Shown here: in pieces, positions 4,969 through 36,011 of the stretch | Numbering within the stretch: the first letter of the stretch is position 1 | How the letters are laid out: the number at the start of each line of letters is the position of its first letter | Virus record (IMG/VR): IMGVR_UViG_3300027784_000002 | Location: 1 to 41,206 of that record | DNA length: 41,206 nt | Strand: one strand, 5' to 3' | DNA from: a virus | The notes under the pieces: generated by a model | The model's database searches: none | What the model was told of the DNA's origin: nothing | The model's input: the letters and a program-made list of their open reading frames with translations, nothing else | Position numbers and translations under genes: made by a program

Positions 4969-4972
4969 GGGA

Positions 4973-5170: not shown

Positions 5171-5222
5171 TTTACTCCTCTTATCTCCACTCTCTACCGT
5201 AGTAAAGAATGGAGTAAAGGGA

Positions 5223-17500: not shown

Positions 17501-19963
17501 AATGAGCCCAGAGAAGAACTGGTAGGAGTTACTCTGAACATAGACGAAGAAAATATAGACGGAAACCGTCTCAGAATATACGACGAGGAAGGAGTCCAAG
17601 TAGACTATGAAGAAGCAGAGAGAACTACCGAAGGCGGAACAACTACAGTAAAGATAAGACTCTTAGCTCAAGTAGGAACTAAATATACTGCTTATTATAA
17701 CAACGAAGGAAGTGAATATACTCCAGTAACGGTTGAGAAAGAAGCGATGGCGGTTAAAGAAAAGTCAATGATTCCGATCACATCTGATGACTTCTTTACT
17801 GACCCTGATGAAAGTGAAACGGGAGTACACGGTTCTTCAACAGCAATAGGAACGCTCAATGGAGCAAGAAAGAGAGTAATTGCTGGTAAAGCTAAAGAAG
17901 AAGTAGAGGGAGGTTTTCACAAGTGGCATTCGACCATTGTAGTTATTGATGACAATGATGAGAAAGAATTCCTCGAAAGAACACCTTATGGAGACCAGAG
18001 TGGCTTTTACGGAGTTGAGATAGTAGATATAAATGGAGATGGAAATAATGAGATAGTAGCAGTCGGATATACATTTGAAACTGGAAATGATTATGCTTCA
18101 GGATTTATAGCAATCTATTCTTACGACGGAACTCTTACAGAGCTTAATACTCTTACATGGAACCCCGGAACAGTTAGATCCGAGTTTTTTGCAATGAATA
18201 CTGCGAATATAACAGAGCACAGCGGTCTTGATTTAATAGTTGGTGGAATGAATGGAGAGGGAAGTGATGCTGCCAGCTCAGAGGTGAGGATTTACAATGT
18301 AGATTCAAACAACAACATAAACTTCATAGACAGCGCTGATACTGGATTAGTGGAAGAAATTAACAATAATGACAGAGATAGAATCTTCTCTCTTGGAGTT
18401 GGAGATTTTGGAACAGGAGACAAAATTGTATCCACAGGTACTACTAAATCGGGGCTATACAACGAGCATGACCACTGGATTCTATATGCAACTATCATTG
18501 TTTATGACTACGACTCAGGAACAAGCACACTAAGTAGAGAATTCCAGCACTATTATTACGAAAGTGAAGACCTTACGGAGATATTCGGAATGGATATTGC
18601 TGACGTTACAGGAGACGGAAACGATAACATAATCACAGGTGGTAATTATTACGAGTATGACAACTTATCGGATATTGCAGAGGTAAGACTCTGGGAGTAC
18701 GACACAGGAACTCCAGCAATGACTCTCTTAGATAGAGTTGAATATCCGGCACAGGGGCACTCAACCGTTCTCTCAATACTTTATAGAGACTCCAATAACG
18801 ACTTTGGACATGAAATAGTTGGAGCAGGATTTTTCCACGACGGTGAATATGATAAAGGATTTAATGTAATTCTTGTTTATGATGGAACTAATCTTAATAC
18901 TATTTTCCAAGATACATGGGATCATGACGGAAGACCTATAAGAGATGGTGAAACGGATGCAATGGAGATATACCCAACACAGCTTGGATTGAATGAGATA
19001 TTTACTACAGGTAGAATCGGAATGACAAGCCCTATATGCTCATATTATCGAATACTTCAGGTTGGAGGAGTAAATCTGGATGTAGATAACGAAGAAACCG
19101 ACTTCAAGCCATTAGAGGATATAACCTATAGACTGCAGACAGGGGAGACTCTGGACAGAGTTGATATTACCGTCTCAAATACTGCAGGAACTGAATATAG
19201 TTATTACACATTCTCACGATATGATACTTATCCAGAAAACATCTATCTTCAATGGGTAGAGGAAGTAACCGAGGCCGGTGTTACCGTTAACTACGAAGTT
19301 GATGTGGGCAAGGAAGGATTAGTAAAGATTCTTTACGAGATAATTGATGGACAACGCCAATTTAAGGAAAAGCTGACTGCTGATGTTAATGGAAAGGTTC
19401 AATTCTCAACCACTGATCATAGTGAGAACGAATTAGAGCTTACTGACCCGGTAACAACCAAAGAAGCCACTAATAGAGAAATTGACAAAGCAACTCTAAA
19501 CGGAGAGACTGAAGAAGAGGGAGATGCCTACTTCCACTATAAAAAACCGGGTGATCTAGATTGGACAGAAACCCCTAAATCAACTGAAACAGGAGTGTTC
19601 TCTAAAGAGATTACGGGACTTGAAATGGGACAAGATTACGATTTTAAGGCAATGCTTGATGTGGGAACAGACACCTACGAAGGAGATGTGAAAACATTCA
19701 ACACGAAATATGGTAAAATTGCCGGGAAAGTTATAGATAGTGATGGGAATGTTCAAGACGCTATAGTTGAGATAACCAATCAGAATAAGGAGACTTATGT
19801 TGCAAGCATCATCACAGATGCAAATGGAGAGTTTGAGTATTCTTTCGATGACGAGAATCTCGCAAACGATAAATATCACGTGAAGGTAAGATACACTGAT
19901 ACTGAGGGATATAAATGGAACGCGCCCAGTTTGTGGGATATTGATCCGACTAATTTAGAATAA
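14513..19963 (+). CDS. Giant multidomain tail fibre/adhesin (1816 aa): DUF2341-like x2, LamG/concanavalin-like x2, Ig-like repeats, FG-GAP/VCBS beta-propeller, FN3-like, carboxypeptidase-regulatory-like
   Basis: - DUF2341-like: GGDIRVTESDGTELP...YYIYFGS.
- LamG: FTMSTWFKW...WHHFVMKRDGNSMVTYLDGVEVDS.
- FG-GAP: VDINGDGNNEIV, GVGDFGTGDKIV and DIADVTGDGNDNII.
- CarboxypepD_reg-like: GKIAGKVIDSDGNVQDAIVEITN...TDANGEFEYSF. Confidence 0.8.
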   Translation: MAERNEPQDNSEQKWIPDAFDYSNVEDILDGTYHLELTEESAGVYNTSGYRTSSPISLDSIKKVKSSNIKWTSTEPTDTDIKIYTAVSDSDTVEPSKLGTHRIKITSDNTKVAASYPYAMIFDLGEHLSAAGYNDFWTTVKSDGGDIRVTESDGTELPRGVREVDTTNKKGLVYFRADDISTSADTEYYIYFGSGQDDYADDHALGMENVFSSDQEFYFTMADLTTSTVKDETSNNRNGTKTSANNPSQTLDGIVGKHQEWDYSLISFSGPSLVQADFTMSTWFKWTSDVVKSSENQPSFLSHGSGSYTSALYLDLLSDRRRIISRITNGVTLSYYASPYDDDTWHHFVMKRDGNSMVTYLDGVEVDSETDESLGTSSASGSWYMGGLSWASTHRQLEGQFQDETGALSTALTGDEILTIYNNQSSNSTFWTAGSIETTTEGYQEEVNDTSIDSISTDQDLTGKYLWVRQELSTTDTAETPRLSTLEYSVEDAAPTVTTDKDRYDPGETVNLITEITKDYNTDDLTVTLTDPDAVDRISSERPQEYRDDFISETSTGDDWDLGTDYSVNETNERLEFGYSPAYHQTALIKSTVVSDKAELSAALDFYVAEAPEHTTRIIMRYQDSNNYVAFYASHTYSVVGIEEIHEGTRHFHETSRPFSTGGWNEFRGSIDGNTAKLVFDGSELLEYELQYIMTAGRVGIMTDASETYYRFFTVGYPGSTIEDIGDMWRITMPFDIPDDKDEGGVWTMESEISGVGSDTHTFNVVGDAPIVTNLSTTPEEGEAGKDIDIECEVLHDTPTDIDETKLTLWDPTGAEVLHQVVTHETETTNSRTYKYTYSIPEELDREGTWEYKWESIDTGADQDEKSGTFEVSVPAPDVSPIEFERAGSPIKIADFGDVVKIKSTITHPENKDMTVTLKIWDPEQNEIVNETLTSETDNYEYNYTFSKNDWDRGDYEVQISADDLTYNVIRLKHIFLRWMDAEFEYRRDFYTVDQFNEPREELVGVTLNIDEENIDGNRLRIYDEEGVQVDYEEAERTTEGGTTTVKIRLLAQVGTKYTAYYNNEGSEYTPVTVEKEAMAVKEKSMIPITSDDFFTDPDESETGVHGSSTAIGTLNGARKRVIAGKAKEEVEGGFHKWHSTIVVIDDNDEKEFLERTPYGDQSGFYGVEIVDINGDGNNEIVAVGYTFETGNDYASGFIAIYSYDGTLTELNTLTWNPGTVRSEFFAMNTANITEHSGLDLIVGGMNGEGSDAASSEVRIYNVDSNNNINFIDSADTGLVEEINNNDRDRIFSLGVGDFGTGDKIVSTGTTKSGLYNEHDHWILYATIIVYDYDSGTSTLSREFQHYYYESEDLTEIFGMDIADVTGDGNDNIITGGNYYEYDNLSDIAEVRLWEYDTGTPAMTLLDRVEYPAQGHSTVLSILYRDSNNDFGHEIVGAGFFHDGEYDKGFNVILVYDGTNLNTIFQDTWDHDGRPIRDGETDAMEIYPTQLGLNEIFTTGRIGMTSPICSYYRILQVGGVNLDVDNEETDFKPLEDITYRLQTGETLDRVDITVSNTAGTEYSYYTFSRYDTYPENIYLQWVEEVTEAGVTVNYEVDVGKEGLVKILYEIIDGQRQFKEKLTADVNGKVQFSTTDHSENELELTDPVTTKEATNREIDKATLNGETEEEGDAYFHYKKPGDLDWTETPKSTETGVFSKEITGLEMGQDYDFKAMLDVGTDTYEGDVKTFNTKYGKIAGKVIDSDGNVQDAIVEITNQNKETYVASIITDANGEFEYSFDDENLANDKYHVKVRYTDTEGYKWNAPSLWDIDPTNLE

Positions 19964-19964: not shown

Positions 19965-20759
19965 ATGGAGTATATTATCCCAAAAGCAAACAATCTAACA
20001 TTTGAGCTAGAGGAATACATGGTTCCTACTGGTGACAGTTTGCTTTTTGATCTTACTCCGGAAATTCTCATAGAGGCAGTAGAAAGTCTCAATTTTACAG
20101 AAAAAGTATCCGTAACTAGACACAGGAAAATAGCAGTATCTGAAAACCTTTCGCTCTCAGAAAAGCTGAATATAATTATACATCACGCTGTCGTTGGTAT
20201 AGATAGTATATCTTTTAGTGACGAAGTTTCTGCTACAAGGCAAAGAATAGCTCAAGTTAAGGATAGCTTGGATTTATCAGAAAAAGTTAAGGCACTAAGA
20301 CAACGTATATCAAAGGTTTCTGATTCTATTGGACTAACTGATTTAGTTTCCACTACAAAGTATATTATTGCAAAGGTTTCCGACTCAATAGGATTTAGTG
20401 ATACTATTCAAGCTCTAAGACAAAGAAAGGCTTCTGTCTCTGACTCATTTTCTTTATCAGATTTTACAAAGAGTATAAGGTCTAGAGTGGCAAAGGCAAA
20501 AGAATTACTATCACTTAAAGAAGGTGTAGCTTTTGCATCAATTGTTATATTTGCAATAGTTAAAGATACAATACAATTCAGTGAAAGAGTTTCAACTTTA
20601 AGACAACGCATAGCGAAAATTAAAGAGAGACTTAACTTAAAAGAGAGTGCGTTTGCTCGCTTTCTTGGATGGAGACAAGATAAACAAGACGATGCTGAAT
20701 GGAGACAAGATAAACAAGATGATGCTGAGTGGAATAAAACTAATCAAAAAGATTTATGA
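19965..20759 (+). CDS. Repeat-containing tail protein (264 aa; about 10 tandem 20-aa units)
   Basis: Units such as AQVKDSLDLSEKVKALRQRI, SKVSDSIGLTDLVSTTKYII and AKVSDSIGFSDTIQALRQRK. Starts 1 nt after the stop of the giant fibre gene. Confidence 0.7.
   Translation: MEYIIPKANNLTFELEEYMVPTGDSLLFDLTPEILIEAVESLNFTEKVSVTRHRKIAVSENLSLSEKLNIIIHHAVVGIDSISFSDEVSATRQRIAQVKDSLDLSEKVKALRQRISKVSDSIGLTDLVSTTKYIIAKVSDSIGFSDTIQALRQRKASVSDSFSLSDFTKSIRSRVAKAKELLSLKEGVAFASIVIFAIVKDTIQFSERVSTLRQRIAKIKERLNLKESAFARFLGWRQDKQDDAEWRQDKQDDAEWNKTNQKDL
20670..20729 (+). repeat. Tandem 30-nt duplication (2 mismatches) encoding WRQDKQDDAE twice
   Basis: tggagacaagataaacaagacgatgctgaa is followed directly by tggagacaagataaacaagatgatgctgag. 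Confidence 0.9.
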
Positions 20760-23842: not shown

Positions 23843-25294
23843 ATGGCTGTACCAGCAATACTATATGGGGCAGGTGTTAAAGCAGCTAAAGCTGCTCCTT
23901 GGCTAGGTCACACTATTGCGGGACTTTGGGGAGTCGGTCAGCATAAAAGTCAGGAAAGAGAAAAAGAGGCGCAGCATGAAAAGTGGATAGCAGAAGGTAT
24001 GCAGGCTCAGAAGTATGCTAGAGATGCTAGAGACGCATTTCATAGTCTTCTTGACTCAGCTAGAGCTAAAACATATGATGCTCAACACGAAGAACATACA
24101 TTTGCCGGAGGGAGAACTCCGAGAGACGATGAGGAACTACAAAAAGGGCCCGATCTTTCCTATTTACAAGAAGCACTAGATGGTTATCAAGTAGAGGGAG
24201 TAGATCTTCCGGATGTCCCCGATGTAAGAGAAGATATTGATTGGATGAGAGATAAAATAGGAGAAACTCCGGAAGTTCCTGATTTAAGTGGGGAGATGGA
24301 AAGATTAAGGAGCAAATATCAGGTAGAACCTATAGAGCAACAAATAGCAGAGTATGATAGGGAGATAGTGGAGGCTCAACAAAGATGGGAGGAGCAATTT
24401 GCGCGTGAAGAAGGAAGACCTGTTACCTTAGAGCAGATGAGGGGCAGGACTGGAGAAATGTCTAGGGAAATGGAAAGAGAGATAGGATTTTTAGAGCAAA
24501 GAAAAGAAGTTGCTGTTAGTGAGTTGAATCAGAAATACGAGACTATAAATATGATGATGGATCTTGAGGCTCAACAATATGAAATGGCAAGGCAAGATTA
24601 TGAAATGAGATTTAATAAAGCATTCAATCTTACAGGTATGCTTATTGATACTAAGATGCAGGATTTTCAAAATGCTCTTAATTTAGCTAGAACAGAAACA
24701 GAGTTAGAGTCCGTAAGACAACAAACCGCTCTTGCGAATTGGCAAGTAGCTACTGATGCAATGAGCAATGCAATTCAAAGAGGTGCTATGCAGTCTATTA
24801 ACAACTTGTCTTCTGAGCAGAAAGCTAAATTAGCAAAACAAGAAGTTCAGGCAGGATTACCAGCCGGATTTACTGAAACTTTGTTAAATAATATGCGTCC
24901 TCAAGAAGAGCACATACAAAGCATAGTCTCTCAGGATCAAACAGAAATCTCTTCTATATTAAGAAACCCCACTGATGGGACTTTCCGTGTAGAAAAAAAC
25001 CCTACAGGATTATCTGCAGCACGGACAGAAACAGAATTACTTGAGACGGCCAGCGATCTGGACTTGAATACAAAAAGTCAGCAATTAACTCATTTTAGAA
25101 CTGATTGGGTTGAGGGAATGAAAGATGAGTTGAATAAAATGCCAGAACAAGAAAGGGTTGAGTTAATACAGAGATTTTTAGGTGAACTGGATGCGTATTA
25201 TGATAGAGTTGACACACAAGACATTCTTCGGGAAATGAGGCGCACAGGAATAGATGTTCCCATGTCTGTAACACAATTTTATTCCTCACATTAA
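23843..25294 (+). CDS. Putative internal virion/ejection protein (483 aa)
   Basis: Hydrophobic Gly/Ala N-terminus (AVPAILYGAGVKAAKAAPWLGHTIAGLWGVG) followed by a long E/Q/R coiled coil. Precedes the giant protein. The call is positional. Confidence 0.5.
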   Translation: MAVPAILYGAGVKAAKAAPWLGHTIAGLWGVGQHKSQEREKEAQHEKWIAEGMQAQKYARDARDAFHSLLDSARAKTYDAQHEEHTFAGGRTPRDDEELQKGPDLSYLQEALDGYQVEGVDLPDVPDVREDIDWMRDKIGETPEVPDLSGEMERLRSKYQVEPIEQQIAEYDREIVEAQQRWEEQFAREEGRPVTLEQMRGRTGEMSREMEREIGFLEQRKEVAVSELNQKYETINMMMDLEAQQYEMARQDYEMRFNKAFNLTGMLIDTKMQDFQNALNLARTETELESVRQQTALANWQVATDAMSNAIQRGAMQSINNLSSEQKAKLAKQEVQAGLPAGFTETLLNNMRPQEEHIQSIVSQDQTEISSILRNPTDGTFRVEKNPTGLSAARTETELLETASDLDLNTKSQQLTHFRTDWVEGMKDELNKMPEQERVELIQRFLGELDAYYDRVDTQDILREMRRTGIDVPMSVTQFYSSH

Positions 25295-25302: not shown

Positions 25303-28300
25303 ATGAGTCTTTTAGATAGACACAAAAAAGAACTTCAGGAAATCAGAAGAGATCCTAGTATTCCTGATGAAACAGGACAAAAGTATCGTGAAGATACTGG
25401 TGTTGGAACTCAAATAAGATCTCCGGCAGAAACTGGAGGTTCTTCTAATTTACTAAAGAGACATCAACAGATGATCCAACAAGATAGTGATCTCCATGAG
25501 GAGGTTAGAAAAGCTACAATTAAAGAAACAAAAGGTATTCCTGATAGAGTGAGAGGTTTTATGGCTGATATTTATGATATGGGAGAAAGATTATTTACTG
25601 AAGAAAAACCAAAAGAAACAGTGGTTGAATTGGACAGGGTGGGAAGAAGGGAAAAGATTGACGTAGAACCCAAAAAAGGTGTATGGGAAACCTTGAGAGA
25701 TTCTTCAAAAAGAACATATCACAATACAGCAGCAGAGATTTTATCTACACGAGCAGTTACCAGAGCTTTCTCGGATAGACTGCCTTTTTTCTCTTTTTCA
25801 GAGGAAGGGACTTATGATTTATTGGATAGAGCGGAGGAAAGGAGAGAGATAGCTAGAGAGTTTCAAAAAGATGTGGAGAAGATAGAGGATATAGATACAT
25901 TTAGTGACTTTGGAAGGTGGGTTGGTTCTACTTCGATAGAAATGGTTCCAATAGTTGGAAGTATAATGATTGGTGGATATATTGGAGGTGCTGCTGGTGG
26001 AGTTGCGGGATCCGCTATTGGTAAATCTAAAATAGGCGCTAGAGTCGCAACTTCAGGAGTAGGAAAGTTGGCCGCAAAAACTCCTAAATTAGGAGGTCTT
26101 ACCTCTCAACAACTTGGAACTATTTCTGGATCTACTATGGGCACATTTTCAGTAGGCTATGCCTCTTATGCAGGAACTATATTTGAGGAAGCTGTTAGAC
26201 AAGGGGCTGAGATAGATGATGCCACATCTGCGGCACTAAGATATGGAGCTCCGGCTGCAGCAGTTAGTATAGTCTTTCCTGCCATGATAGCATCTTATAC
26301 TTTAGGAGCATTTGGTAAAGCAGCAATGAAAAGTAAAATAAGAGTTGCAGCAGAAGGTATTATGGTTGGTGCTCCATCAGAGGGTGTGGCTGAGGGTATA
26401 GCAGAGATATTTACTATAATGGGAGAACAAGTTGCTCAAGGGAAAGATATTTCCGCCTCTGAGATACTTAGAAGTGAAGAGGGGTGGAGCAGGGTTAAAA
26501 ACGCCATGGCTGGAGGTGCTTTGATGGGATTCGGTTTTGGTGCATTGGGTGGTGCTGCAAGATCAAAGAAACAAATAACTCCTAACGATATAATAAGAGC
26601 GACTGATGATTTTTTGGATGCAACAGATCAAGCCATGGAGCTAAATAGAACCACAAGAAGAGGTGAGGTGGAAGATAATCTTCTTGGTAGGTTAAGAGAA
26701 ATAGAGGATCCTTCTGCAGAACAACAGCAATTGATTAACTTCCTTCAGGAAAGAGTAGATGATGCAAGATTGGATGTGAATAAATATGATTCTTTGATGA
26801 TTTATGATGAGCAAATGATGGAGGTTCTTCGTCAAGATGAGGGTTATGTTAGAGAAAGATTGAAAGAATTAGCTCTAAAGAAAGAACCAACTCTGGTAGA
26901 AGCTGCAGAACTTTCTGCTATAATGGTAAACAAACCTAAATTAGCTCATGATGTTGTTACAAAACTAAGACCAGAAGATGTACCAACAAGTCCTGATTAT
27001 TTAGCGGATAGAATAGTTTATGAAATTGCTCAGCCGGGACAATGGACCAATTTGAATGATATACATGAAGCAGTAGAGGGGGAAGGATATAGTCGTACTG
27101 ATGTAGATAAAGCTGTAGATATTTTAGAAAGAAAGAATTTAATTGATAGAGATCAGAGATACGCACCTGCGGATAGTATAAAAACGAAACCTGAAGAATT
27201 AGGATTGCCTCCTGATTCAGACAATATACCTGATGCTATAGATGAGATATATAAAGGAAAAAGAAAAATAAAGGTTCCTACGACCGGATTTGAAACAGAG
27301 GTAAGAGAAGCTATGCGCAAAGGTGATTATATGCGTATATTTTCTAAGGATAAGGGTACTGCAATAGATGAGATTGCCGATGAGTTAGGAATAACACCAA
27401 GTCAGTTGGTTGATGAATTGATTGAAAGAAGTAAGGGCAATAAGAGACTTATTGTTCCAGACAAGGGACCATTAGATACACGACCAAGTGAAATACAAGA
27501 GATGGGAGATGAAATGCCCAGGCATCAATTAGGGCCTCCGGAAGATATTGGAACAAGTGACTTTGATGTTAGAAAAAAACAATCCATAAAAAAGAGGTTT
27601 CCTCACATACATGAATTAAGAAAAAGGAATGTAGATTGGAATAAGTTAGATAAAACGCAAAAAGAAGCTGTTCGTATTTGGTATAATCAAAAAGACAGCT
27701 TAAAGGAGAGAATAGGTGCGGTTGAGAGTAGTTTTGGAAAAGAGGCCAGAGATTCTGTAGAGAGCTACATAAATCAAGGCAAAACAGGTGAACAGTTTGC
27801 TTACGATCTATTTAGAAAAAAAGAAGATGTGGTAGCGCCTAAGGATATTCCCAATGCTTTAGAAAAAGTTAAAACAAATGTAGAATTTTATCAATCAATG
27901 GGAACTAGTTATGAGGGAGATATTCAACCAGAAAATGCAGCTCTCAGAGATTTGAAGGAATTAGCAGAAGATAAAAAAGTTAAACAACGGACTCAAGAGC
28001 AAGTTAAGCAAATTACTGAAAAAGATGGGATGATTACCCTTTATAGGGTAGGGGAAGTTACTGATGTTGATCGTCTAGTTAGTGCTACTTATGATAAAAA
28101 ATTTGCCGATAAGTTTGCTGAGGCAGTGCTATCCCAAAGTAAAACAAAGCCAAAACTTACTGAGTTTAGGGTAAGCCCAGATGAGGTGAAGATATTTATA
28201 GGTGGAGCAGAAAGTGAGGTTTTAGTTCATAGTTTAATTCATAAGAGGGCGGTTGAGGGAGAAGAAGCAAACATCAATGTACAATTAGGAAAACTACACT

Positions 28301-31300
28301 TTAGACACAAAGAAGAAGCAAAGGCGTTTTATAATATGATAGAGGGAGACCCTGAACTACCTTCTTTTCTTAGAGAGCCTGAGTTTCAAATAGATGAAAC
28401 CAGTCAAGATCCAGTAATAGATCCACCAGTAACAAAAGAAAGTGAAGTGGGAATGTTGTCTCGTCAATGGACAACGGATCTTAATATAAAGACAAATAAA
28501 AAGAGATGGTTTACTGTTTTAAGGGATATAGCATTTGACTTGGGAGTAAGTGAGATTTCCTATAAGCCTCACAAAAAAGATTTGCTGGGAACTTTTTGGT
28601 GGGATAAATATAACAAACTTAATTATGGTATAACTCTTAAAGAGACTTGGAGCTTAGCAACGCTAGGACACGAAGTGGGCCATGTTTTTGATTATGTGGT
28701 TATACAAAATCTTGGAGACTTAAAAAAGCCCAGAAGTATGAAGCAAAGGATCTCAAAGAGATATGATAAGATGCGCGAGAATGTGAATAATATGCCTTGG
28801 ACTGATAAGAAAAAGCAGGAGGTTATAGATAGAATAGAGAGCTTTAAGGATGGGGAATTTATAAAAGAGATAGAAAATCTAATTAAATACACAAAAAACT
28901 GGGATAGAAGAACCGAAAGAGAAGAGATGTTTGCTAATTGGTTCTTAGCTTACTTAAATGATTACGATACAACCGTTGCCATAGCTCCCAAATTTACCGA
29001 GGCGATGGAAATGACTTATATGAATGAGCTCCAAAGTGTAAGGAGTAAGTATAAGATTCCAGCTGAAGATACTGAAATACTCAACCTTCCTCCTGCAAAA
29101 AAAGCAAGGAAAGGTATTGATAATTATTTAAGAGGATTACAGCAAGCTAATAAGCTAATGAAACACGATGATACTGTTGAATGGATACAGAATTACAGGA
29201 ATTCTCTCAAAAAACTTCCGGATAAATACTTGAATATATTAGGTATGCCTTACGGAGAATCAATGAGAAATCCGCATTTTAGAGATATGTATAAACCCGT
29301 TCAGGATTATGGAGTAAACGAAGATCACAAAACAAAAGTAGAGTGGCTCGAAAAATCAGGTATACGTAAGATAAGAAAGCTACCGGAAGCCTCAAAAAGA
29401 AAACTTGCTTATGTTTTGTATCAAGGAACTGACATGGAAGAAGTTTATACTGACCAGCAACTTGAAACAGTGTTTGGAATGGATAGTCAGGAGAGGGCTT
29501 ACTACAAGCGAGTGAGAGAAGTTTTGGATGAGGTGAGAGATAAAATGATAGAGACAAGGAAATTTGAGACGGGTTATTATGATATGACAGCGCAGAAAAA
29601 AAAGGATATTGATCGACATATTCAAAATCAAATCAAAGAGCTTACAGGATATTTTCCTAAAACAAGAAGTGGAAAGTGGATTGTTTTTGCAGGAAAGGAT
29701 TATAATGCAAAGACCGGAACTTATGAAACAATTGCTTATGATCACTTTCACTACGCAAAACAACCTCTTATTGCACAAGATGCCCCAAATGCTGCAGATT
29801 TTGCGCAACACTTAAAGGATATGAAAGCGTATGACAGGATAGTTGTAAAAGAGTGGAAAGACTTGCCAAAAGAAATGCAGAGATCAATGACAAAGCAAGC
29901 ATCTTGGTGGGAGCTTCAAAAGATAATAGATAATTCTGGTGTTGATAGAACTGATCCTGAGATACAAAAAATTGTCAAACAGATTGAAAAGAAAACAACG
30001 GAGGGTTGGAAAAAAAGAATTGCAAAAAGAAAAAATGTTCCCGGATTGGATTATACTTTTGAGAACTTTGAACACTCTTTACTTGATATTATAGATGATG
30101 TTTCAAGGGCTCATGCGAGAGCAAAAGCTAAATATCACTGTGAGAAAGCACGTGAGAAGATGTATCAAGCAGAGAAAGATGGAAAAGTTTCCTCAGAGGC
30201 AGTAGCTAGGGCTGAAAAATGGTTTGAGCACTACTTCAATCAAGCAGGGAATGATAGTTGGGTTACCCTAAGAAAAGGTATTTATTGGTGGTATCTCGGA
30301 TGGAAAGTATCATACTTTTTCCAAAACGCTCTACAACCTGTAATGACAACATTAGGAGAGGTTGGTAAGCATGCCAGCATCAGTCAAACCCCCAAACATT
30401 GGGGCAGGGGATACGGATTGTCTATAGATTATTTCTTATCAAGGAAAGCAGGAAACGACTTTATTAAAATAGCTCCTAAGTCCATACAGAATTTCTTACA
30501 AGGAAAAAGGAGGCAGGGAGATCCCCTATTTTATGAGCTTATGGATAGAGCTGTAATGGAGAGAGCGATTTCTGGACAATTTCAAGAACAGATGCTTGGT
30601 GTTAGAAACCCAAAAATGGAAGCACTTCAAAATGTTATAGGAGCTTTTGGTGTAGCTACAGAAACCATAAATAGAAGTCATGCAATGGCAACAGCTTATG
30701 ACATAGCAGTTAATCAGTACAAAATGAAAGATAAGAATAAGATATATGAGTTTATGAAAGAGATGAATTACAATACTCAATTCCCTTATGGTAAGCACAA
30801 TATACCTTTTGGATTAACTAAGGTTGGAGAGATGAAGGGCCCCCTAAGAACTATGTTTGTTTTCAGGTCTTTCTCTCTGAATTACTTAGATTATTTTATG
30901 AGAATGATGACCACCGGAACTAGTGCTCAGAAGTTTTATGGAATTTCCTCAATGATAACAATAGGTGGAATAAGAGGACTTCCTTTTTATGCGATATTAA
31001 ATGCTTTAATTGGTTGGATATGGAAAAGAGATGTTACCGAGAATATCGATGCTTTATTTGATGAAGAAGATGAATGGATAGGAGACTTCCTCATAGGTGG
31101 TGCCTTCTCTTGGGCTAATATGTCTACCTCTCAATTGCTTGGAGTTGGAGATATTGTTTCTCCAACCTATGATCCCATGGGGCAGGCCCTTGGTGCAGGA
31201 TACGGTTTAGCGGGAGATATTAAGTATGGTATGGATCTTTATAAAGAAGGTGATTTGGAAAGAGCGTATGAAAGATTCTCGCCAATAGCACTTAGAAACA

Positions 31301-31692
31301 TACAAACAGCCTTCAGGTGGCAAGAAGAGGGAATTGATTTTGGTAGAGATGTGGTTCATGAACCGGAAGGGTGGGATCTTTATATGAAGGCGCTCAGTTT
31401 TACACCTTATGATGTCTCTCGTCAGTATGATAAAAGGAATATGGCTGACAGATATAGAGATAGTAAAACACGGCTTGGTAAAAGATATACGAATGCTATA
31501 AAAAGGGGTGAAAGCACAGAGTCTATTATTGAATCAATAGAAAAACATAATAGAATAGTTGAAGATGAGTTATATAAGATGTATTACCATTCAAAAATCC
31601 CAATTTCGGTTGACTCTTGGGAAAAAATAGAAAATTCAATCTTAATTGATTTTGACGATATATTTAGGTGGGAAGATAGAGCTTATGAATAA
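25303..31692 (+). CDS. Giant virion protein (2129 aa) with Gly-zipper membrane region, ART-like module, HExxH zincin module and hydrophobic C-terminal region (polyvalent/ejection protein candidate)
   Basis: Uninterrupted 6.4-kb ORF.
- Gly-zipper region: VPIVGSIMIGGYIGGAAGGVAGSAIG.
- ART-like: LYR...SAT...ESEVLV.
- Zincin: LATLGHEVGHVFDY.
- C-terminal hydrophobic segments: FYGISSMITIGGIRGLPFYAILNALIGWIW. Confidence 0.8.
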   Translation: MSLLDRHKKELQEIRRDPSIPDETGQKYREDTGVGTQIRSPAETGGSSNLLKRHQQMIQQDSDLHEEVRKATIKETKGIPDRVRGFMADIYDMGERLFTEEKPKETVVELDRVGRREKIDVEPKKGVWETLRDSSKRTYHNTAAEILSTRAVTRAFSDRLPFFSFSEEGTYDLLDRAEERREIAREFQKDVEKIEDIDTFSDFGRWVGSTSIEMVPIVGSIMIGGYIGGAAGGVAGSAIGKSKIGARVATSGVGKLAAKTPKLGGLTSQQLGTISGSTMGTFSVGYASYAGTIFEEAVRQGAEIDDATSAALRYGAPAAAVSIVFPAMIASYTLGAFGKAAMKSKIRVAAEGIMVGAPSEGVAEGIAEIFTIMGEQVAQGKDISASEILRSEEGWSRVKNAMAGGALMGFGFGALGGAARSKKQITPNDIIRATDDFLDATDQAMELNRTTRRGEVEDNLLGRLREIEDPSAEQQQLINFLQERVDDARLDVNKYDSLMIYDEQMMEVLRQDEGYVRERLKELALKKEPTLVEAAELSAIMVNKPKLAHDVVTKLRPEDVPTSPDYLADRIVYEIAQPGQWTNLNDIHEAVEGEGYSRTDVDKAVDILERKNLIDRDQRYAPADSIKTKPEELGLPPDSDNIPDAIDEIYKGKRKIKVPTTGFETEVREAMRKGDYMRIFSKDKGTAIDEIADELGITPSQLVDELIERSKGNKRLIVPDKGPLDTRPSEIQEMGDEMPRHQLGPPEDIGTSDFDVRKKQSIKKRFPHIHELRKRNVDWNKLDKTQKEAVRIWYNQKDSLKERIGAVESSFGKEARDSVESYINQGKTGEQFAYDLFRKKEDVVAPKDIPNALEKVKTNVEFYQSMGTSYEGDIQPENAALRDLKELAEDKKVKQRTQEQVKQITEKDGMITLYRVGEVTDVDRLVSATYDKKFADKFAEAVLSQSKTKPKLTEFRVSPDEVKIFIGGAESEVLVHSLIHKRAVEGEEANINVQLGKLHFRHKEEAKAFYNMIEGDPELPSFLREPEFQIDETSQDPVIDPPVTKESEVGMLSRQWTTDLNIKTNKKRWFTVLRDIAFDLGVSEISYKPHKKDLLGTFWWDKYNKLNYGITLKETWSLATLGHEVGHVFDYVVIQNLGDLKKPRSMKQRISKRYDKMRENVNNMPWTDKKKQEVIDRIESFKDGEFIKEIENLIKYTKNWDRRTEREEMFANWFLAYLNDYDTTVAIAPKFTEAMEMTYMNELQSVRSKYKIPAEDTEILNLPPAKKARKGIDNYLRGLQQANKLMKHDDTVEWIQNYRNSLKKLPDKYLNILGMPYGESMRNPHFRDMYKPVQDYGVNEDHKTKVEWLEKSGIRKIRKLPEASKRKLAYVLYQGTDMEEVYTDQQLETVFGMDSQERAYYKRVREVLDEVRDKMIETRKFETGYYDMTAQKKKDIDRHIQNQIKELTGYFPKTRSGKWIVFAGKDYNAKTGTYETIAYDHFHYAKQPLIAQDAPNAADFAQHLKDMKAYDRIVVKEWKDLPKEMQRSMTKQASWWELQKIIDNSGVDRTDPEIQKIVKQIEKKTTEGWKKRIAKRKNVPGLDYTFENFEHSLLDIIDDVSRAHARAKAKYHCEKAREKMYQAEKDGKVSSEAVARAEKWFEHYFNQAGNDSWVTLRKGIYWWYLGWKVSYFFQNALQPVMTTLGEVGKHASISQTPKHWGRGYGLSIDYFLSRKAGNDFIKIAPKSIQNFLQGKRRQGDPLFYELMDRAVMERAISGQFQEQMLGVRNPKMEALQNVIGAFGVATETINRSHAMATAYDIAVNQYKMKDKNKIYEFMKEMNYNTQFPYGKHNIPFGLTKVGEMKGPLRTMFVFRSFSLNYLDYFMRMMTTGTSAQKFYGISSMITIGGIRGLPFYAILNALIGWIWKRDVTENIDALFDEEDEWIGDFLIGGAFSWANMSTSQLLGVGDIVSPTYDPMGQALGAGYGLAGDIKYGMDLYKEGDLERAYERFSPIALRNIQTAFRWQEEGIDFGRDVVHEPEGWDLYMKALSFTPYDVSRQYDKRNMADRYRDSKTRLGKRYTNAIKRGESTESIIESIEKHNRIVEDELYKMYYHSKIPISVDSWEKIENSILIDFDDIFRWEDRAYE

Positions 31693-31936
31693 TAACGAGA
31701 TACAAAATATAAGAGACGATATCAAAAGAACAGAGAACAAGCTCTCTACTGATATTAAAGATATGAGACAAGTAGATTTAGTGGAGTTAAAAAACTCTCT
31801 CAATATCCTGAATGGTAGAACAAGAAGACTTGAGGTGTGGAGAGGTTTTATGACAGGAGGTCTTGTTATATTAGGAACGCTTTTTAGTGTACTCCTTTTT
31901 ATCGTGAAAGAGGTGTTGGCAAATTCAACATGTTGA
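31685..31936 (+). CDS. XhlA-like lysis-associated membrane protein (83 aa)
   Basis: N-terminal coiled coil plus a single C-terminal TM helix (WRGFMTGGLVILGTLFSVLLFIV), the architecture of Bacillus XhlA. Start is set at an ATG overlapping the giant gene's stop (ATGAATAA). Confidence 0.4.
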   Translation: MNNNEIQNIRDDIKRTENKLSTDIKDMRQVDLVELKNSLNILNGRTRRLEVWRGFMTGGLVILGTLFSVLLFIVKEVLANSTC

Positions 31937-31960
31937 TTTTTACAAGGGATTTGATACAAT
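31933..31960 (+). promoter_or_regulatory. Sigma70-type promoter placed for a leaderless lysin transcript
   Basis: TTGATT (31933..31938), 16 nt, TACAAT (31955..31960), then 6 nt (aattta), then ATG at 31967. Confidence 0.5.
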
Positions 31961-31966
31961 AATTTA

Positions 31967-33076
31967 ATGAGCAATCTTATCGACAAAAAAAACGTATGGG
32001 CTGTAGGATACGGATTTAAGGATAGCCGAAGTCTTATTAAAAAAATAAAAAACCTTCAAAAAAGAAGAAGGGGTGAGACTGCTATTCGTTGTTGGGTCAC
32101 TAAAAAAGAAAAGGAGGAGGATTTAGATGAAAAGGATCTTATTCCCAAGTATATTGATGGAAAGGAAACTGATGTGAAGGTGGGAGAGATGCCCTCTCAT
32201 TTAGGAGAATATAGGAAAAAACACAGGCCCATGAAGGCAGGTATATCTATGTGCAATGCTTATTTAACCGCTTGTACGGCCGGGATACCTGTTTATAAAG
32301 AAGGTAAGGTCTTTTCTTTAGTAAACAATCATTGCCAGAAAAGACTTGATGGTATTCTCAAGAAGAGAGATCCTATACTACAACCTTCACGATTCGATGG
32401 TGGATCATTGGAAGAGCATGCTGTAGGGGAAACCCATGAGTGGTACGAAAGAAGTATTGATAAGTTAAACGAAATGGATGCAGGGCTTAATTGGGTCAAA
32501 AAGAAATTACTCAGAAGAACACTTAAAAGAGAGTATGTTCCTAAAATTGGAGAAGATGTAAGGCCCGGAGATATAGTTTGGAAAGAAGGAAGAACTACCG
32601 GGTATACAAAAGCTAAGGTGTTAGATGTAGATGTGGAGGCTCGTGTAAATAGTGATGATGGTGTGTTGAAATATAAGGGCATGACTTTTACGGAACCAAG
32701 ATTAGGAGATGCTGGAGATAGCTCATCTGCTGTATTTAATAAGTTGAATAAAGTTGTAGAGCAATTATTTGCGGGAAGTGAGAGTATTATGGTTACTCAG
32801 CCAATAAAAAGACTATTAGATCATTTTAATGTTTCACTTACTCCGGAAAAGGAAGCGCTTTATATGGCTGATGGCTGGTTTAATATAGTTCCCGAAAGCG
32901 TAGAAAAAGATAACTTAGAGGTTATAATAAATACTTACTGGGGAATGAATGTAAGAGATGAGGCCGGACTTCATGGAGATATTATAAGAAAAGCAAAAAA
33001 GGGAGAAGCAGTTAGGTTGCTAGGTTATGCAGGAGAATGTGATGGGTATGATTGGTATAAGATTGAGTTTTTATAA
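31967..33076 (+). CDS. Chymotrypsin-fold (S1E, alpha-lytic-protease/streptogrisin-like) serine peptidase fused to a C-terminal SH3b domain; candidate endolysin
   Basis: - Catalytic-triad contexts: SLVNNHC (His122), EMDAGL (Asp171), GDAGDSSSAVF (Ser252).
- Family hallmark: KEGRTTGYTKAKV.
- SH3b-like C-terminus: GMNVRDEAGLHGDIIRKAKKGEAVRLLGYAGECDGYDWYKIEF. Confidence 0.6.
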   Translation: MSNLIDKKNVWAVGYGFKDSRSLIKKIKNLQKRRRGETAIRCWVTKKEKEEDLDEKDLIPKYIDGKETDVKVGEMPSHLGEYRKKHRPMKAGISMCNAYLTACTAGIPVYKEGKVFSLVNNHCQKRLDGILKKRDPILQPSRFDGGSLEEHAVGETHEWYERSIDKLNEMDAGLNWVKKKLLRRTLKREYVPKIGEDVRPGDIVWKEGRTTGYTKAKVLDVDVEARVNSDDGVLKYKGMTFTEPRLGDAGDSSSAVFNKLNKVVEQLFAGSESIMVTQPIKRLLDHFNVSLTPEKEALYMADGWFNIVPESVEKDNLEVIINTYWGMNVRDEAGLHGDIIRKAKKGEAVRLLGYAGECDGYDWYKIEFL

Positions 33077-33997: not shown

Positions 33998-34040
33998 AAA
34001 GGAGGGAAAGCACACTAAACAACGAAAGGAGGTGATGTAA

Positions 34041-34169
34041 ATGTATTGTCATGCAAGGTGTATCCATTGTGGCAAAGATGGTTTTCACAGGATCATTGAT
34101 TCAGGTATGAATCGTCTTGTGGTTCTTTGCAAGCACTGCGGACTTGTTTTCCGTATAATCCTTAAGTAG
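34041..34169 (+). CDS. Zinc-ribbon protein (42 aa; below the ORF-track cutoff)
   Basis: Hand translation gives MYCHARCIHCGKDGFHRIIDSGMNRLVVLCKHCGLVFRIILK. A strong SD (AAGGAGGTGA) ends 8 nt upstream of the ATG. Confidence 0.6.
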   Translation: MYCHARCIHCGKDGFHRIIDSGMNRLVVLCKHCGLVFRIILK

Positions 34170-34179
34170 GAGGTATGCT

Positions 34180-34377
34180 ATGTGGTATTCAGGAGGAGAC
34201 AAGCTGAGCCCTGAACAAGAGTTTATCTTCAAGGTTCAAATGCTTGCCGAAAAGTACGATACCGAGGTGGAAATTGACCAGAAAAATAAGACGGTCAACT
34301 TCCTTGCCAAAGATGAAGCAACTCAAATTGCTCTCGCAAAAGAGCTTGAGGACCTTTTTTCTGACAATCTGGTCTAG
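34180..34377 (+). CDS. Acidic hypothetical protein (65 aa)
   Basis: ORF track. SD GGAGG lies 6 nt upstream. Confidence 0.65.
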   Translation: MWYSGGDKLSPEQEFIFKVQMLAEKYDTEVEIDQKNKTVNFLAKDEATQIALAKELEDLFSDNLV

Positions 34378-34388
34378 GGGGTGATGTC

Positions 34389-34679
34389 ATGAATGAGTTC
34401 GAGGTTTTCTTGTTTGATAGTGAATGGGACTTTGAGTTCTGTTGGACTTCCAAGAAGACCTACGGAACAATAAACCCCAGAAAGTCTCTGGTAAAGATTA
34501 ACATTCGGCTTATGCTGATTGAGACACTTTACCACGAATACTATCACACGAAGTATCCCAGTTTTGACGAATCGGCTATTGAGAGAATGGCTCAAACCAA
34601 GGTTCAATCCTTATCGGTTTCTGAAATCATAAGGATTACCGACAAGTTTGTCGCATACTGGGGAAAGGGGGGTGAATGA
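34389..34679 (+). CDS. Minimal HExxH metallopeptidase-like protein (96 aa; SprT/DUF45-like)
   Basis: LYHEYYH contains an HExxH motif. It is preceded by W.S..YG.I......VKINIRL, as in SprT/WLM/DUF45 zincins. SD GGGGGTGA upstream. Confidence 0.55.
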   Translation: MNEFEVFLFDSEWDFEFCWTSKKTYGTINPRKSLVKINIRLMLIETLYHEYYHTKYPSFDESAIERMAQTKVQSLSVSEIIRITDKFVAYWGKGGE

Positions 34680-34960
34680 ATTACTCTCGACACCATGTAA
34701 CACCTCGTTCTCGGATACGTAAGTCCAAGAACACAGTCTTGTTGCCAGAGAAGTTCCATGATAGTTGGCACTACCTCTTTGGTGACCTAACGCCAATCGA
34801 AACAATCTTCTTCTTAAAGGAACTGAATGCCCGAATGCACAAGAAGAGAATTATCACAAAGGGCGAAATTCAGGAACTAAGGGAAGGGATAAAGGAGGGA
34901 CGAAATGAAACAGAACCTCAGAAAAGGACGAAAGGTAAACATCAACCGACACGATCTTAA
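34676..34960 (+). CDS. HNH/His-Me finger-like small protein (94 aa)
   Basis: SRHHVTPRSR...KNTVLLPEKFHDSWHYLFGDLTP resembles small phage HNH proteins (HH..P.s..N..LLP..H..WH.LFG). ATGA overlap with the upstream gene; SD AAGGGGGG. Confidence 0.55.
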   Translation: MNYSRHHVTPRSRIRKSKNTVLLPEKFHDSWHYLFGDLTPIETIFFLKELNARMHKKRIITKGEIQELREGIKEGRNETEPQKRTKGKHQPTRS

Positions 34961-35693
34961 ACCCCGAAAGGACAGGTATCACGCAGACATCGTTCTCTTC
35001 GGAGATACGCATCTCGGACACCCCAACTTCCTTCGGGAAAAAGCACAGGATTTGCTTAACTACTGCCTCAGAACTAGGACTTACATGGTCTGCATGGGCG
35101 ACATGATTGAGAGTGGCATTACTGGCTCTGTTGGAGATAGTATCTATACCCAGACCCTTAATCCACAAGCACAGATGGAAGAAATGATTGATATGCTTAT
35201 GCCATTGGCGAAAGCTGGACTTCTTCTCGGATTGCACGCGGGTAACCATGAGATGCGTATCTTCAAAACATCTGGCATCAATGTCGCCAAGAACATGGCT
35301 GGTTGGCTCGGAGTACCGTTCCTGCACAGTGCTTGCTGGCATCTGTTTCGTGTAAATGGACACAACTACACAATGTATTCATTACATGGTGCTAGTGGTT
35401 CAAAGTTTATCTACACGAAGATTAAGGCGGCTACCGATATCAGCCACTACTTCGGAGCAGATATTATTGCTCACGCACACGTTCACGATAGGGCATCGGT
35501 TGCCATTGAAAGACAGGAAATCGATATGAGAAACAAGCAAGTTGCCTACCGCAAACAGTATATCCTTCTTACTGGTCATTATCTTGGGTACGATTTAAGT
35601 TATGCTCAAGACAAGGGTATGCCACCATCAAAGGTTGGTAGTCCTCGGATTCGGTTGTATGCCAATGATTGGGATATACATATTCGTGAATAG
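34905..35693 (+). CDS. Calcineurin-like metallophosphoesterase (262 aa)
   Basis: The full motif set is in order: LFGDTHLG, CMGDMIESG, AGNHE, LHGASG, AHAHVHD. SD AAGGAGG lies 6 nt upstream. Confidence 0.8.
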   Translation: MKQNLRKGRKVNINRHDLKPRKDRYHADIVLFGDTHLGHPNFLREKAQDLLNYCLRTRTYMVCMGDMIESGITGSVGDSIYTQTLNPQAQMEEMIDMLMPLAKAGLLLGLHAGNHEMRIFKTSGINVAKNMAGWLGVPFLHSACWHLFRVNGHNYTMYSLHGASGSKFIYTKIKAATDISHYFGADIIAHAHVHDRASVAIERQEIDMRNKQVAYRKQYILLTGHYLGYDLSYAQDKGMPPSKVGSPRIRLYANDWDIHIRE

Positions 35694-35701
35694 GGGGAGC
35701 T

Positions 35702-35800
35702 ATGAAACACTTCATAATTTATGTCTCCCTTATGGCCCTGGGTTATGGACTTAAACTACTTCTATGGATTGCCGAAAGAAGGGAGGAAGATGAAGACTAA
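35702..35800 (+). CDS. Small single-TM peptide (32 aa; below the ORF-track cutoff)
   Basis: Hand translation gives MKHFIIYVSLMALGYGLKLLLWIAERREEDED. SD GGGGGAG lies just upstream. Confidence 0.45.
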   Translation: MKHFIIYVSLMALGYGLKLLLWIAERREEDED

Positions 35801-35975
35801 TAGATACAAGTTCACTGACTGGGAGCTGATACACAACAGGTGCGATGAGTGTGGTGGCAAGGTCTACGCAAAACGGATAATGTCCAGAGACCACCTTATC
35901 AAGTGCGATGGTTGTGAAAGGTCAATGCTCATAAAGGAACCTCATGATACATTTACCACTGACTATGTTATTTAG
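35790..35975 (+). CDS. Zinc-ribbon protein (61 aa)
   Basis: ORF track 35721..35975, trimmed to the ATG preceded by SD AAGGGAGG. Contains CDECGG...CDGC. Confidence 0.55.
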   Translation: MKTNRYKFTDWELIHNRCDECGGKVYAKRIMSRDHLIKCDGCERSMLIKEPHDTFTTDYVI

Positions 35976-35984
35976 AAAGGGCCC

Positions 35985-36011
35985 GCCACCTTGCCCAAAA
36001 AGGTGGCTTTT
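35985..36011 (+). terminator. Rho-independent terminator closing the SD cassette
   Basis: gccacctt-gcccaaa-aaggtggc followed by ttttc. Confidence 0.7.

Follow-up and report, generated by a model that had tools for sequence, protein, structure and literature searches.

A compact phage giant protein combining a C-terminal PLxRFG module with zincin-like and ADP-ribosyltransferase-like domains: a putative ejected internal virion protein

The window analyzed here is the whole stretch of 41,206 nucleotides of viral DNA that forms positions 1 to 41,206 of the IMG/VR record IMGVR_UViG_3300027784_000002. It encodes a giant protein of 2129 residues. The kind to which it belongs is known and comprises the PLxRFG giants, the polyvalent proteins and the ejection proteins of the IVP-D class (internal virion protein D); the present member is new, divergent and unusually compact. 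We consider it rather probable that the giant is a packaged and ejected internal virion protein of the cargo-carrying class, with a C-terminal part for incorporation and ejection, an N-terminal anchor and cargo in the middle. The open reading frame (ORF), the domain boundaries, the family membership of the C-terminus, the conserved residues of catalytic type and the genome position are established by the present analysis. The gene is one uninterrupted ORF on the plus strand (25303–31692), which starts with ATG and ends with a stop codon after 2129 codons. Logan contig SRR490134, an independent assembly, carries the same neighbours and a giant protein that is 100% identical. Since a second independent contig encodes the identical protein, the ORF is not an assembly artefact. 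This confirms the single 6.4-kb ORF of an earlier reading, which had been made from the letters of the window without database searches (the sequence-only reading).

That reading had also stated that no single known family explains the protein. For the whole protein this holds, and no useful match was obtained when the complete sequence was searched against Pfam, PHROGs and PDB sequences and, by tblastn, against 50,697 phage records. The C-terminal third, however, belongs to a known family, PLxRFG / NF032893. The NCBIfam model NF032893 ("tail-700", PLxRFG domain-containing protein) matches residues 1511–2084 with 97.2 bits and E=8.2e-28, covering profile positions 47–643 of 681. An exhaustive HMMER search with residues 900–2099 as query and a cut-off of E<=1e-3 returned 512 proteins of 770–4850 residues. 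The conserved core, corresponding to residues ~1310–2090 of the giant, is always C-terminal in these proteins, and a smaller set also shares the zincin region discussed below. The name-giving motif corresponds to residues 1449–1457 of the giant. It aligns to GYAPLSRFG of gp60 from Pseudomonas phage H66, and G1449 and R1455 are invariant in the subfamily alignment (A1).

Comparison with the giant proteins of podovirus-like genomes had been proposed by the sequence-only reading, and the C-terminal module indeed proved common to many of them, e.g. H66 gp60. Aligning the family profile (A1) with the C-terminus of H66 gp60 by hhalign gave a probability of 99.9% and E=2.5e-33 over 649 columns. H66 gp60 (3787 residues) is encoded by the last gene of the virion module, followed by holin, endolysin and spanin genes, and its GenBank record states that it was "verified by mass spectrometry as part of the virion". 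By tblastn with two relatives of the giant, P0002 and P0011, the module was located in giant proteins of ~60-kb podoviruses, among them the Pseudomonas F116/H66/LKA5/phiC725A group, Skulduggery, Vibrio douglas 12A4, and Erwinia PEp14 and Pavtok. Agrobacterium Atu_ph08 (gp21), Klebsiella LASTA, Sinorhizobium PBC5 and Ochrobactrum POI1126 also belong to these podoviruses with the module. The annotations of these giants vary between DNA methylase, DarB-like antirestriction, Snf2 helicase, internal virion polymerase, structural, PLxRFG and hypothetical proteins. Papers that name the PLxRFG domain state its function as unknown and nothing more.

The extended T7 IVP-D family of Hardies et al. 2016 (PMC4819975) includes H66 gp60, F116 p60, Vibrio douglas 12A4 00062 and PBC5 p23, and it also takes in phiRIO-1 gp37, epsilon15 gp17 and the C-terminal domain of N4 gp50. 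The same authors linked H66 gp60 to T7 gp16 (IVP-D) by comparison of hidden Markov models (HMM-HMM, E=8e-19) and described internal virion proteins as hosts of domains destined for the cytoplasm (PMC4819975). A PLxRFG domain was detected by tblastn in all four of H66, F116, Vibrio douglas 12A4 and PBC5. Because the giant is homologous to H66 gp60, which the analysis of Hardies et al. 2016 places in the extended IVP-D family, we assign it to the same family. In agreement with this assignment, it is a large, extensively alpha-helical protein encoded in the tail/ejection block. Its proposed role also resembles that of T7 gp16, the largest internal core protein, which is ejected and acts at the cytoplasmic membrane. 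In contrast to gp16, which contains a transglycosylase domain, a separate SLT gene lies downstream here. Foldseek detected no match of model 1 (see below) to solved T7 core structures.

With H66 gp60, F116 p60 and the other PLxRFG giants the protein shares the homologous all-alpha C-terminal module of ~700–780 residues, the very large size and a variable, cargo-like N-terminal and middle part. Like H66 gp60, it is encoded by the last gene of the virion module just ahead of the lysis genes. The differences are considerable. Those giants comprise 3700–4900 residues and carry methylase and SNF2-helicase ("DarB-like") cargo, whereas the giant described here has 2129 residues, an ART-like domain (ART, ADP-ribosyltransferase) and a zincin domain placed directly before the module. 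Sequence identity is about 20–27%. The host is probably different as well, since the present genome is largely devoid of Shine-Dalgarno sites and in this resembles Bacteroidota.

A full-length counterpart is P0002, a metagenomic protein of 2140 residues that is collinear with the giant (Gly-rich N-terminus, HExxH at about residue 1022, C-terminal module). It reaches 487 bits on NF032893 and carries the Pfam domain LPD39 (LPD stands for large polyvalent protein associated domain). A word-indexed protein search returned only the giant itself and P0002, and use of a profile added only three more proteins. Scanning GTDB (one genome per species) with the conserved core yielded just one contig, of 4.8 kb, which comes from a metagenome bin carrying the label archaeon, and the corresponding IMG/VR scan gave one contig. 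With one contig each, the subfamily of the giant is rare in both collections. The MAFFT alignments A2, A3, A5 and A7 were left unused because fragments were misplaced. The loci of P0002 (L002 / L003) continue with a divergently oriented 945-residue DUF927 gene and an HTH_7 gene; the architecture of the giant thus occurs also in a quite different element backbone.

For residues 1005–2129 a structure was predicted from 15 sequences (model 1; predicted local distance difference test, pLDDT, 70; predicted template modelling score, pTM, 0.62). The C-terminal module is almost purely alpha-helical in this model, with a small alpha/beta insert near residues 1459–1545 and pLDDT values of about 75–90. 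With a cut-off of E<=1e-3, Foldseek matched the model to 65 predicted viral structures. These include C-terminal pieces of giants annotated as "large polyvalent protein-associated domain-containing", methylase or helicase, and the "internal virion protein D" (~1400–1500 residues) of the marine podoviruses Roseobacter CRP-5 (E=3.5e-8) and CRP-4. The list further contains the large proteins from Celeribacter P12053L, Vibrio ICP2 and Salinivibrio CW02, as well as a structural protein from a Flavobacterium phage. Several hydrophobic helices had been expected in the last ~450 residues from the sequence alone. Only residues 1881–1911 are clearly hydrophobic there (Kyte-Doolittle 1.45), and a second stretch at residues 1930–1952 is weak (0.85). 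At the position matching residues 1881–1911, 12 relatives possess an equally or more hydrophobic segment with a G-[LT]-P-F signature. According to the model, the C-terminus is a globular all-alpha domain of known type and not a bundle of transmembrane helices.

The conserved hydrophobic helix bears on a reversed distribution of roles, in which the PLxRFG module would form the membrane channel, comparable to the inner-membrane complex of T7 gp16, and the Gly-rich N-terminus would dock to the capsid or portal. Such an arrangement would account for the presence of one strongly hydrophobic helix in every family member. It would also agree with the best, non-significant PDB fold matches, which are helical membrane transporters, and with the grouping of the family with T7 IVP-D by Hardies et al. 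2016. On the other hand, the predicted module is one large globular domain of alpha type in which a single helix is hydrophobic, and the membrane-entering part of N4 gp50 is the N-terminal domain, while the C-terminal domain refolds in the cytoplasm (PMC13434306). Hence, we regard the reversed distribution as quite improbable and continue with the C-terminal module as the part for incorporation and ejection.

Directly before this module the protein contains its only HExxH motif (H1123, E1124 and H1127). Together with E1208 downstream, these residues are invariant in an alignment of 14 relatives with 19–31% identity. HExxH followed by a downstream Glu is also what characterizes the zincin domain of phage-type polyvalent proteins. 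In model 1 this part is predicted, with low confidence, to be composed of a helix, three strands and the HExxH helix. A search of the domain profile against the PDB resulted in a weak list that is topped by zincins only (M3B oligoendopeptidase F, E=0.039; anthrax lethal factor, 0.17; ACE; IrrE). When the members were scanned individually against Pfam, ATLF was hit in 4 of 14 and Tox-MPTase4 in 2 of 14, and none of the Pfam or PDB matches reached the curated threshold. The zincin-like module that had been read from the HExxH motif is thus supported by the invariant H, E, H and E and by the weak matches. These matches agree with the unification of polyvalent-protein metallopeptidases with lethal factor by Iyer et al. 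2017 (PMC5512222). The domain is likely a processing protease.

A separate observation concerns the HExxH region of P0002. Its residues 1015–1166 match the phiKMV-type gp37 (L005, LKD16 gp37) present in ~100 Pseudomonas phages with 30% identity and E about 7e-8. The gp37 proteins are annotated as "internal virion protein / DNA ejectosome component", and this sequence match directly links a polyvalent-type zincin domain to a classical ejectosome protein. No such match was obtained with the giant's own subfamily profile.

Iyer et al. 2017 (PMC5512222) defined polyvalent proteins and described the zincin metallopeptidase as their hub and commonest domain, with a proposed function in processing of the polypeptide. 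Among the protein-modifying cargo, ARTs are found most often, and the ART-PolyVal family has an H-Y-D active site (PMC5512222). The giant seems to resemble these proteins in combining many unrelated domains in one polypeptide of the virion module, with a zincin hub and, as putative cargo, a domain of the common ART type. It is encoded among the late (virion) genes of a phage with a portal–terminase system, as phage-type polyvalent proteins are. Two or more effector domains are typical of the latter; here the zincin domain is supported and the ART-like domain is plausible as the second. Relatives of the giant carry LPD39 (P0002) or ART-PolyVal (the closest relative P0003, and P0055 likewise), whereas the giant itself has no Pfam LPD match (LPD1–40).

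The ART-like domain comprises residues 847–992 and has 42–60% identity to a domain at residues ~430–590 of P0055, P0102, P0104 and P0112. R915 (in TLYR), S927-A-T929 and E970-S-E972-V-L-V are invariant in the five sequences. Classical R-S-E ARTs (C2/C3/VIP2-type) have the signatures Y-R, S-x-T and E-x-E-[VI]-L-[LIV]. An AlphaFold model of the domain shows the order beta-beta-alpha-beta-beta-beta with pLDDT values of 60–78. Y914 and R915 stand where one strand ends, the following strand carries S927-A-T929 and the last one E970-S-E972-V-L-V. This corresponds to the Arg, the Ser-Thr-Ser-type motif and the Glu-x-Glu on strands 1, 2 and 5 of the R-S-E clade. In contrast to the H-Y-D active site of ART-PolyVal, residues of the R-S-E type are present, and the ART-PolyVal Pfam model did not match. 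The Foldseek list against the PDB is headed by ARTs, none of which is significant at the threshold of E<=0.001 (E=0.31–4.6; ExoS 0.31, OspC3 0.42, ParT 1.0–2.0, pertussis S1 4.6). ParT superimposes with a root mean square deviation of 3.3–3.7 Å over 70–76 columns.

An ART-like module had already been proposed from the sequence. The pattern R / S-x-T / E-x-E does occur and does not vary among the five sequences, but the assignment of the fold is based on motifs and sub-threshold matches and is in our opinion plausible; the chances of an ART fold for residues 847–992 are roughly even or slightly better. If the fold is correct, the compact R-S-E domain is likely an ADP-ribosyltransferase with a role analogous to that of T4 Alt. 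The cassette as found in the giant has not been described before. It also occurs without a PLxRFG module, in P0055, P0102 and P0104, of which P0055 and P0104 share a related N-terminus. These three represent a second giant family of 1500–2100 residues, all with the ART-like cassette and without the PLxRFG C-terminus, while P0112 has 922 residues. P0104 additionally possesses a zincin domain. P0055 (L010, 3733–9666), with its additional ART-PolyVal domain, occupies the same slot as the giant, ahead of an SH3_3 gene.

The N-terminal part begins with a charged leader (residues 1–170), for which no homologue was found. It is followed by a Gly/Ala-rich hydrophobic region (residues 172–420), which is a candidate for membrane insertion. 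Within residues 205–420 the Gly content is 17.6% (5.7% in the rest of the protein), the Ala content 17.1% (5.9%) and that of charged residues 15% (33%). The same segment contains 13 GxxxG motifs compared with 6.3 +/- 2.1 in shuffled sequences (p about 0.004). Hydrophobic peaks are located at residues 217–235, 319–337 and 401–419 with a maximum Kyte-Doolittle value of 1.69. Composition, GxxxG excess and the three peaks bear out the N-terminal Gly-zipper hydrophobic region (residues ~205–420) of the sequence-only reading. Residues 172–420 have 27% identity to the same region of P0002 over 215 residues, and PHROG 6958 "virion structural protein" matches residues 176–256 (E=0.0027). Many relatives have comparable Gly/Ala-rich hydrophobic segments at residues 100–500, which are not alignable. 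An iterated HMM search with the N-terminal region in 154 relatives found P0002 alone. The hhalign comparison with the N-termini of P0055/P0104/P0102 (probability 38%, E=3e-4) was not accepted.

Between this region and the ART-like domain lies a small conserved region (residues 606–797), which is common to P0004, P0005 and P0009. Its core (residues ~640–720, 27220–27462) has weak HTH_7/HTH_10 matches (E about 0.2) and sigma-factor fold matches (E about 1), and is possibly similar to a helix-turn-helix (HTH) domain. MAFFT repeatedly placed the corresponding domain of P0004, P0005 and P0009 onto the ART-like domain. This overlay could be due to chance or to a distant duplication.

The overall layout resembles that of N4 gp50 as given by Bellis et al. 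2026 (PMC13434306). There, the N-terminal domain has predicted membrane-spanning helices (residues 224–278) and alone incorporates into nanodiscs. It is followed by a long linker, the RNA polymerase, a domain C1 with HExxH and an alpha-helical domain C2 of ~110 kDa without structural homologue. Ejection as "beads on a string" was proposed. The giant has the same order of N-terminal (here putative) membrane helices, linkers and cargo, HExxH domain and large alpha-helical domain without structural homologue, and both proteins are the largest of a podovirus virion module. In place of the RNA polymerase, the giant carries the ART-like cassette and a small HTH-like domain. N4 possesses two further defined ejection proteins, gp51 and gp52, whose counterparts are only guessed here. 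The comparison with N4 is one of layout, by analogy, and homology is not demonstrated.

Several findings weigh against a packaged, cargo-carrying ejection protein. The presence of the giant in virions is indicated by proxy of H66 gp60 and not directly. The NF032893 score is just below the curated cut-off of 100 bits and the giant would consequently miss the naming cut-off, although a true member of the family can fall below the threshold, as it does here. L and F are replaced in the name motif (P-K-T-R-S-G, residues 1452–1457), which is therefore degenerate. Foldseek gave no match of model 1 in the PDB (best E=0.7), including solved ejectosome structures, and the zincin part of that model has pLDDT values of 50–66. 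Comparison of a PLxRFG profile of 124 sequences with a profile of seven N4-like C-terminal domains resulted in a probability of 0.4% (E=0.14). That of A1 with T7 gp16 gave E=0.24, here with a single target sequence and low sensitivity. Neither comparison reproduced a sequence link to these proteins. The N-terminal helices barely reach classical transmembrane hydrophobicity with their maximum of 1.69. Neither the whole protein nor any of the five ART-like members matched a Pfam ART family at E<=5, and the ART-like model has low confidence (mean pLDDT 55). Moreover, R and S are separated by 12 residues in the giant, and this gap is far longer in classical ARTs. Finally, Bcep22 gp75 and gp20 of Bacillus phage Page, which occupy the same slot, are not detectably related to the giant. 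Hence, the slot can accommodate unrelated giants.

In part, these findings would fit a purely structural ejection or core protein like T7 gp16, which forms a conduit or pulls DNA. The HExxH motif would then serve self-processing or folding and the R-S-E domain would be non-catalytic. The lack of an ART family profile match, the non-significant fold matches, the sub-threshold zincin matches and the non-enzymatic, all-alpha nature of the conserved family core are in line with this. In addition, the HExxH-bearing C-terminal domain of N4 gp50 was described as autoinhibitory, and the available part of that source (PMC13434306) reports no protease activity. However, H-E-x-x-H with E, and R, S-x-T and E-x-E, are invariant across 19–60% identity, which is unusual for decayed enzymes. 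Furthermore, the ART-like domain shuttles as a cassette among otherwise different giants, as effector cargo does. We consider a purely structural protein unlikely and prefer the cargo-carrying ejection protein.

The preferred role is in agreement with the position of the gene. The genes for the small and the large terminase, for an SU10-type portal and for the major capsid protein, then fibre genes and a 483-residue gene lie upstream of it in this order; downstream, a peptidase-like gene containing SH3_3 is followed by an SLT transglycosylase gene. The giant is thus encoded by the final gene of the virion module, directly ahead of genes of lysis type. The closest capsid proteins are those of the Bacillus podovirus genus Pagevirus (38% identity), and no tail tube, sheath, chaperone or tape-measure genes were detected. 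It is fair to describe the giant as the product of the last virion-module gene of a short-tailed phage. P0004 in L009, P0055 in L010 and H66 gp60 occupy the same slot. No neighbours were shared with the loci L002, L009, L010, L012 and L013 in BLASTP comparisons with the neighbour genes of the window.

This position also bears on a role outside the virion, either as a late, membrane-anchored intracellular protein for superinfection exclusion or host takeover, or on a fibre- or tape-measure-like structural protein. The hydrophobic N-terminal segments and the existence of a giant fibre gene in the same genome might be put forward for it. However, mass spectrometry is on record as having detected a homologue of the giant in the virion (H66 gp60), the gene lies inside the virion module in several unrelated phages, the prediction is mostly alpha-helical with motifs of enzyme type instead of a beta-rich fibre, and no genes for a tail tube, a sheath or chaperones, with which a tape measure would be expected, were found. 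Together, these alternatives are most improbable. A fibre or tape-measure protein as such is rejected because of the mostly alpha-helical predicted fold and the missing long-tail genes.

P1 DarB and the "DarB-like" giants Bcep22 gp75 and JC1 gp69 are likewise very large, and the Bcep22 type is also encoded by the last virion-module gene. JC1 gp69, a close homologue of Bcep22 gp75, is virion-associated according to proteomics. In contrast to them, no methylase or helicase domains were detected in the giant by Pfam, PHROG and NCBIfam scans, so that a DarB homologue is rejected, and the C-terminus of Bcep22 gp75 has no detectable relation to it. The family profile showed no relation by hhalign to Page gp20, the C-terminus of Bcep22 gp75, LKD16 gp37, T7 gp16 or the N4 gp50 C-terminal domain. 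No PLxRFG domain was found by an NCBIfam scan of Bcep22 gp75, Page gp20 and LKD16 gp37. BLASTP of the giant against Page gp20, its slot equivalent in the phage with the nearest capsid protein, revealed no similarity.

For the packaged and ejected cargo protein we propose the following course. A few copies would be built into the capsid via the C-terminal HExxH domain and the all-alpha PLxRFG domain of ~780 residues. At infection, the giant would exit via portal and tail with its domains loosely linked, either before the DNA or together with it. The N-terminal Gly-zipper helices (residues ~205–420) may then insert into the cytoplasmic membrane and anchor or complete a trans-envelope conduit. 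Middle cargo, i.e. the HTH-like and the compact R-S-E ART-like domain, and the C-terminal part would reach the cytoplasm, where the ART-like domain might modify a host protein. The zincin domain may cut the polypeptide or a host target, as proposed by Iyer et al. 2017 (PMC5512222). For the giant itself, we infer that it is packaged, ejected, inserted into the membrane and processed, and that it has both enzyme activities; the literature documents, for relatives only, the occurrence in the virion (H66 gp60) and the entry of a comparable N-terminal domain into membranes (N4 gp50). The sequence-only reading had likened the protein to polyvalent giants fused to an ejection scaffold. ART-PolyVal in P0003, the structure matches to polyvalent and IVP-D proteins and the homology to H66 gp60 agree with this, but the C-terminus is not a membrane bundle and the ART part is weak.

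Tentatively, and with considerable doubt, the Gly-zipper region and the HExxH–PLxRFG block may be taken as a general protein-delivery chassis of short-tailed phages with swappable cargo. The giant would then be a near-minimal version with a new compact R-S-E ART that is mobile into the PLxRFG-less giants P0055, P0102 and P0104. If so, the cargo would be RNA polymerase in N4, methylase and helicase in the F116 and PEp14 types and ART domains here. The PLxRFG / tail-700 domain is present in hundreds of the largest phage proteins. Being short and cargo-poor, with the zincin domain abutting the module and a layout like that of N4 gp50, the giant is a convenient construct for the role of the chassis (capsid incorporation, ejection or membrane anchoring), for zincin processing and for R-S-E activity.

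Table 1. Positions of the giant gene, its parts and further genes in the window
Feature	Position	Strand	Basis or remark
Giant gene, whole ORF	25303..31692	+	2129 aa; identical on Logan contig
Charged N-terminal leader, aa 1-170	25303..25812	+	No match covers it
Gly/Ala-rich hydrophobic region, aa 172-420, candidate membrane-inserting part	25816..26562	+	Composition, GxxxG enrichment
Small conserved middle region, aa 606-797	27118..27693	+	Common to P0004, P0005, P0009
Compact ART-like domain, aa 847-992 (R915, S927-A-T929, E970-S-E972)	27841..28278	+	Homologues, motifs, model
Zincin-like metallopeptidase domain, aa 1045-1262	28435..29088	+	H1123-E-x-x-H1127 and E1208; weak zincin matches
C-terminal module, aa ~1310-2090, PLxRFG / tail-700 domain and preceding helical part	29230..31572	+	NF032893, hhalign, model
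Degenerate PLxRFG motif G-Y-F-P-K-T-R-S-G, aa 1449-1457	29647..29673	+	Alignment A1; hhalign to H66 gp60
Strongly hydrophobic helix, aa 1881-1911 (...GGIRGLPFYAIL...)	30943..31035	+	Kyte-Doolittle 1.45
Fibre, 1816 aa, probable receptor-binding	14513-19963	+	DUF2341, Laminin_G_3, MG2-like, CarboxypepD_reg domains
264-aa gene, candidate small ejection/membrane protein	19965..20759	+	Transmembrane helix aa 181-199; PHROG 12240 (unknown function)
483-aa upstream gene, candidate partner ejection protein	23843..25294	+	Composition; weak PHROG 241 match, E=4.7e-4
369-aa peptidase-like protein, C-terminal SH3_3, probable endolysin	31967..33076	+	PHROG 20754, E=9e-32; SH3_3, E=2e-4
SLT-type lytic transglycosylase, 151 aa	33378..33833	+	Pfam SLT, E=1.8e-5; PHROG 3874
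DNA-repair exonuclease gene	34905-35693		PHROG 7339; within the region of raised GC content

Two neighbours of the giant gene are candidates for partner ejection proteins, judged from their sequences. The 264-residue protein has one strong transmembrane helix (Kyte-Doolittle 2.06 for residues 181–199), and the 483-residue protein combines a Gly/Ala hydrophobic N-terminus with a remainder rich in E, Q and R. Homologues of the two proteins were not found in the related loci examined. The 1816-residue fibre gene is the second giant gene of the window, and a gene with the same domains lies upstream of the giant of P0004 in L009. Two further fibre-like genes are located between this fibre gene and the giant. 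Downstream, the 369-residue gene product is a probable endolysin and would mark the end of the virion module. The giant gene is separated from it by a non-coding gap of 274 nucleotides (31693–31966) with small overlapping ORFs at 31646–31936 (+) and 31642–31986 (-). The gap, where the virion module meets the lysis module, could carry a promoter or a terminator.

A loose Shine-Dalgarno 4-mer is present in only 9 of 40 ORF leaders. The leaders are rich in A and T, e.g. TAAAAAACTAAAAA before the capsid gene. This scarcity suggests an initiation independent of Shine-Dalgarno sites as in Bacteroidota. Because of the few sites, the A/T-rich leaders and the DUF2341, Laminin_G_3 and CarboxypepD_reg domains of the fibre, our guess is a Bacteroidota-like, Gram-negative host, in which a trans-envelope conduit would be needed.

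Two other regions of the window differ from their surroundings. At ~34000–36000 the GC content rises to 0.44, compared with 0.35–0.39 on both sides, and the leaders are G-rich; this region, which includes the exonuclease gene, may be a module of different origin. At 1501–5248 a block of small genes lies on the minus strand and coincides with a sharp reversal of the GC skew (-0.39 to -0.25). Nearly all leaders of this divergent, early-type module end with ...TTATTAAA(C/A)TT.

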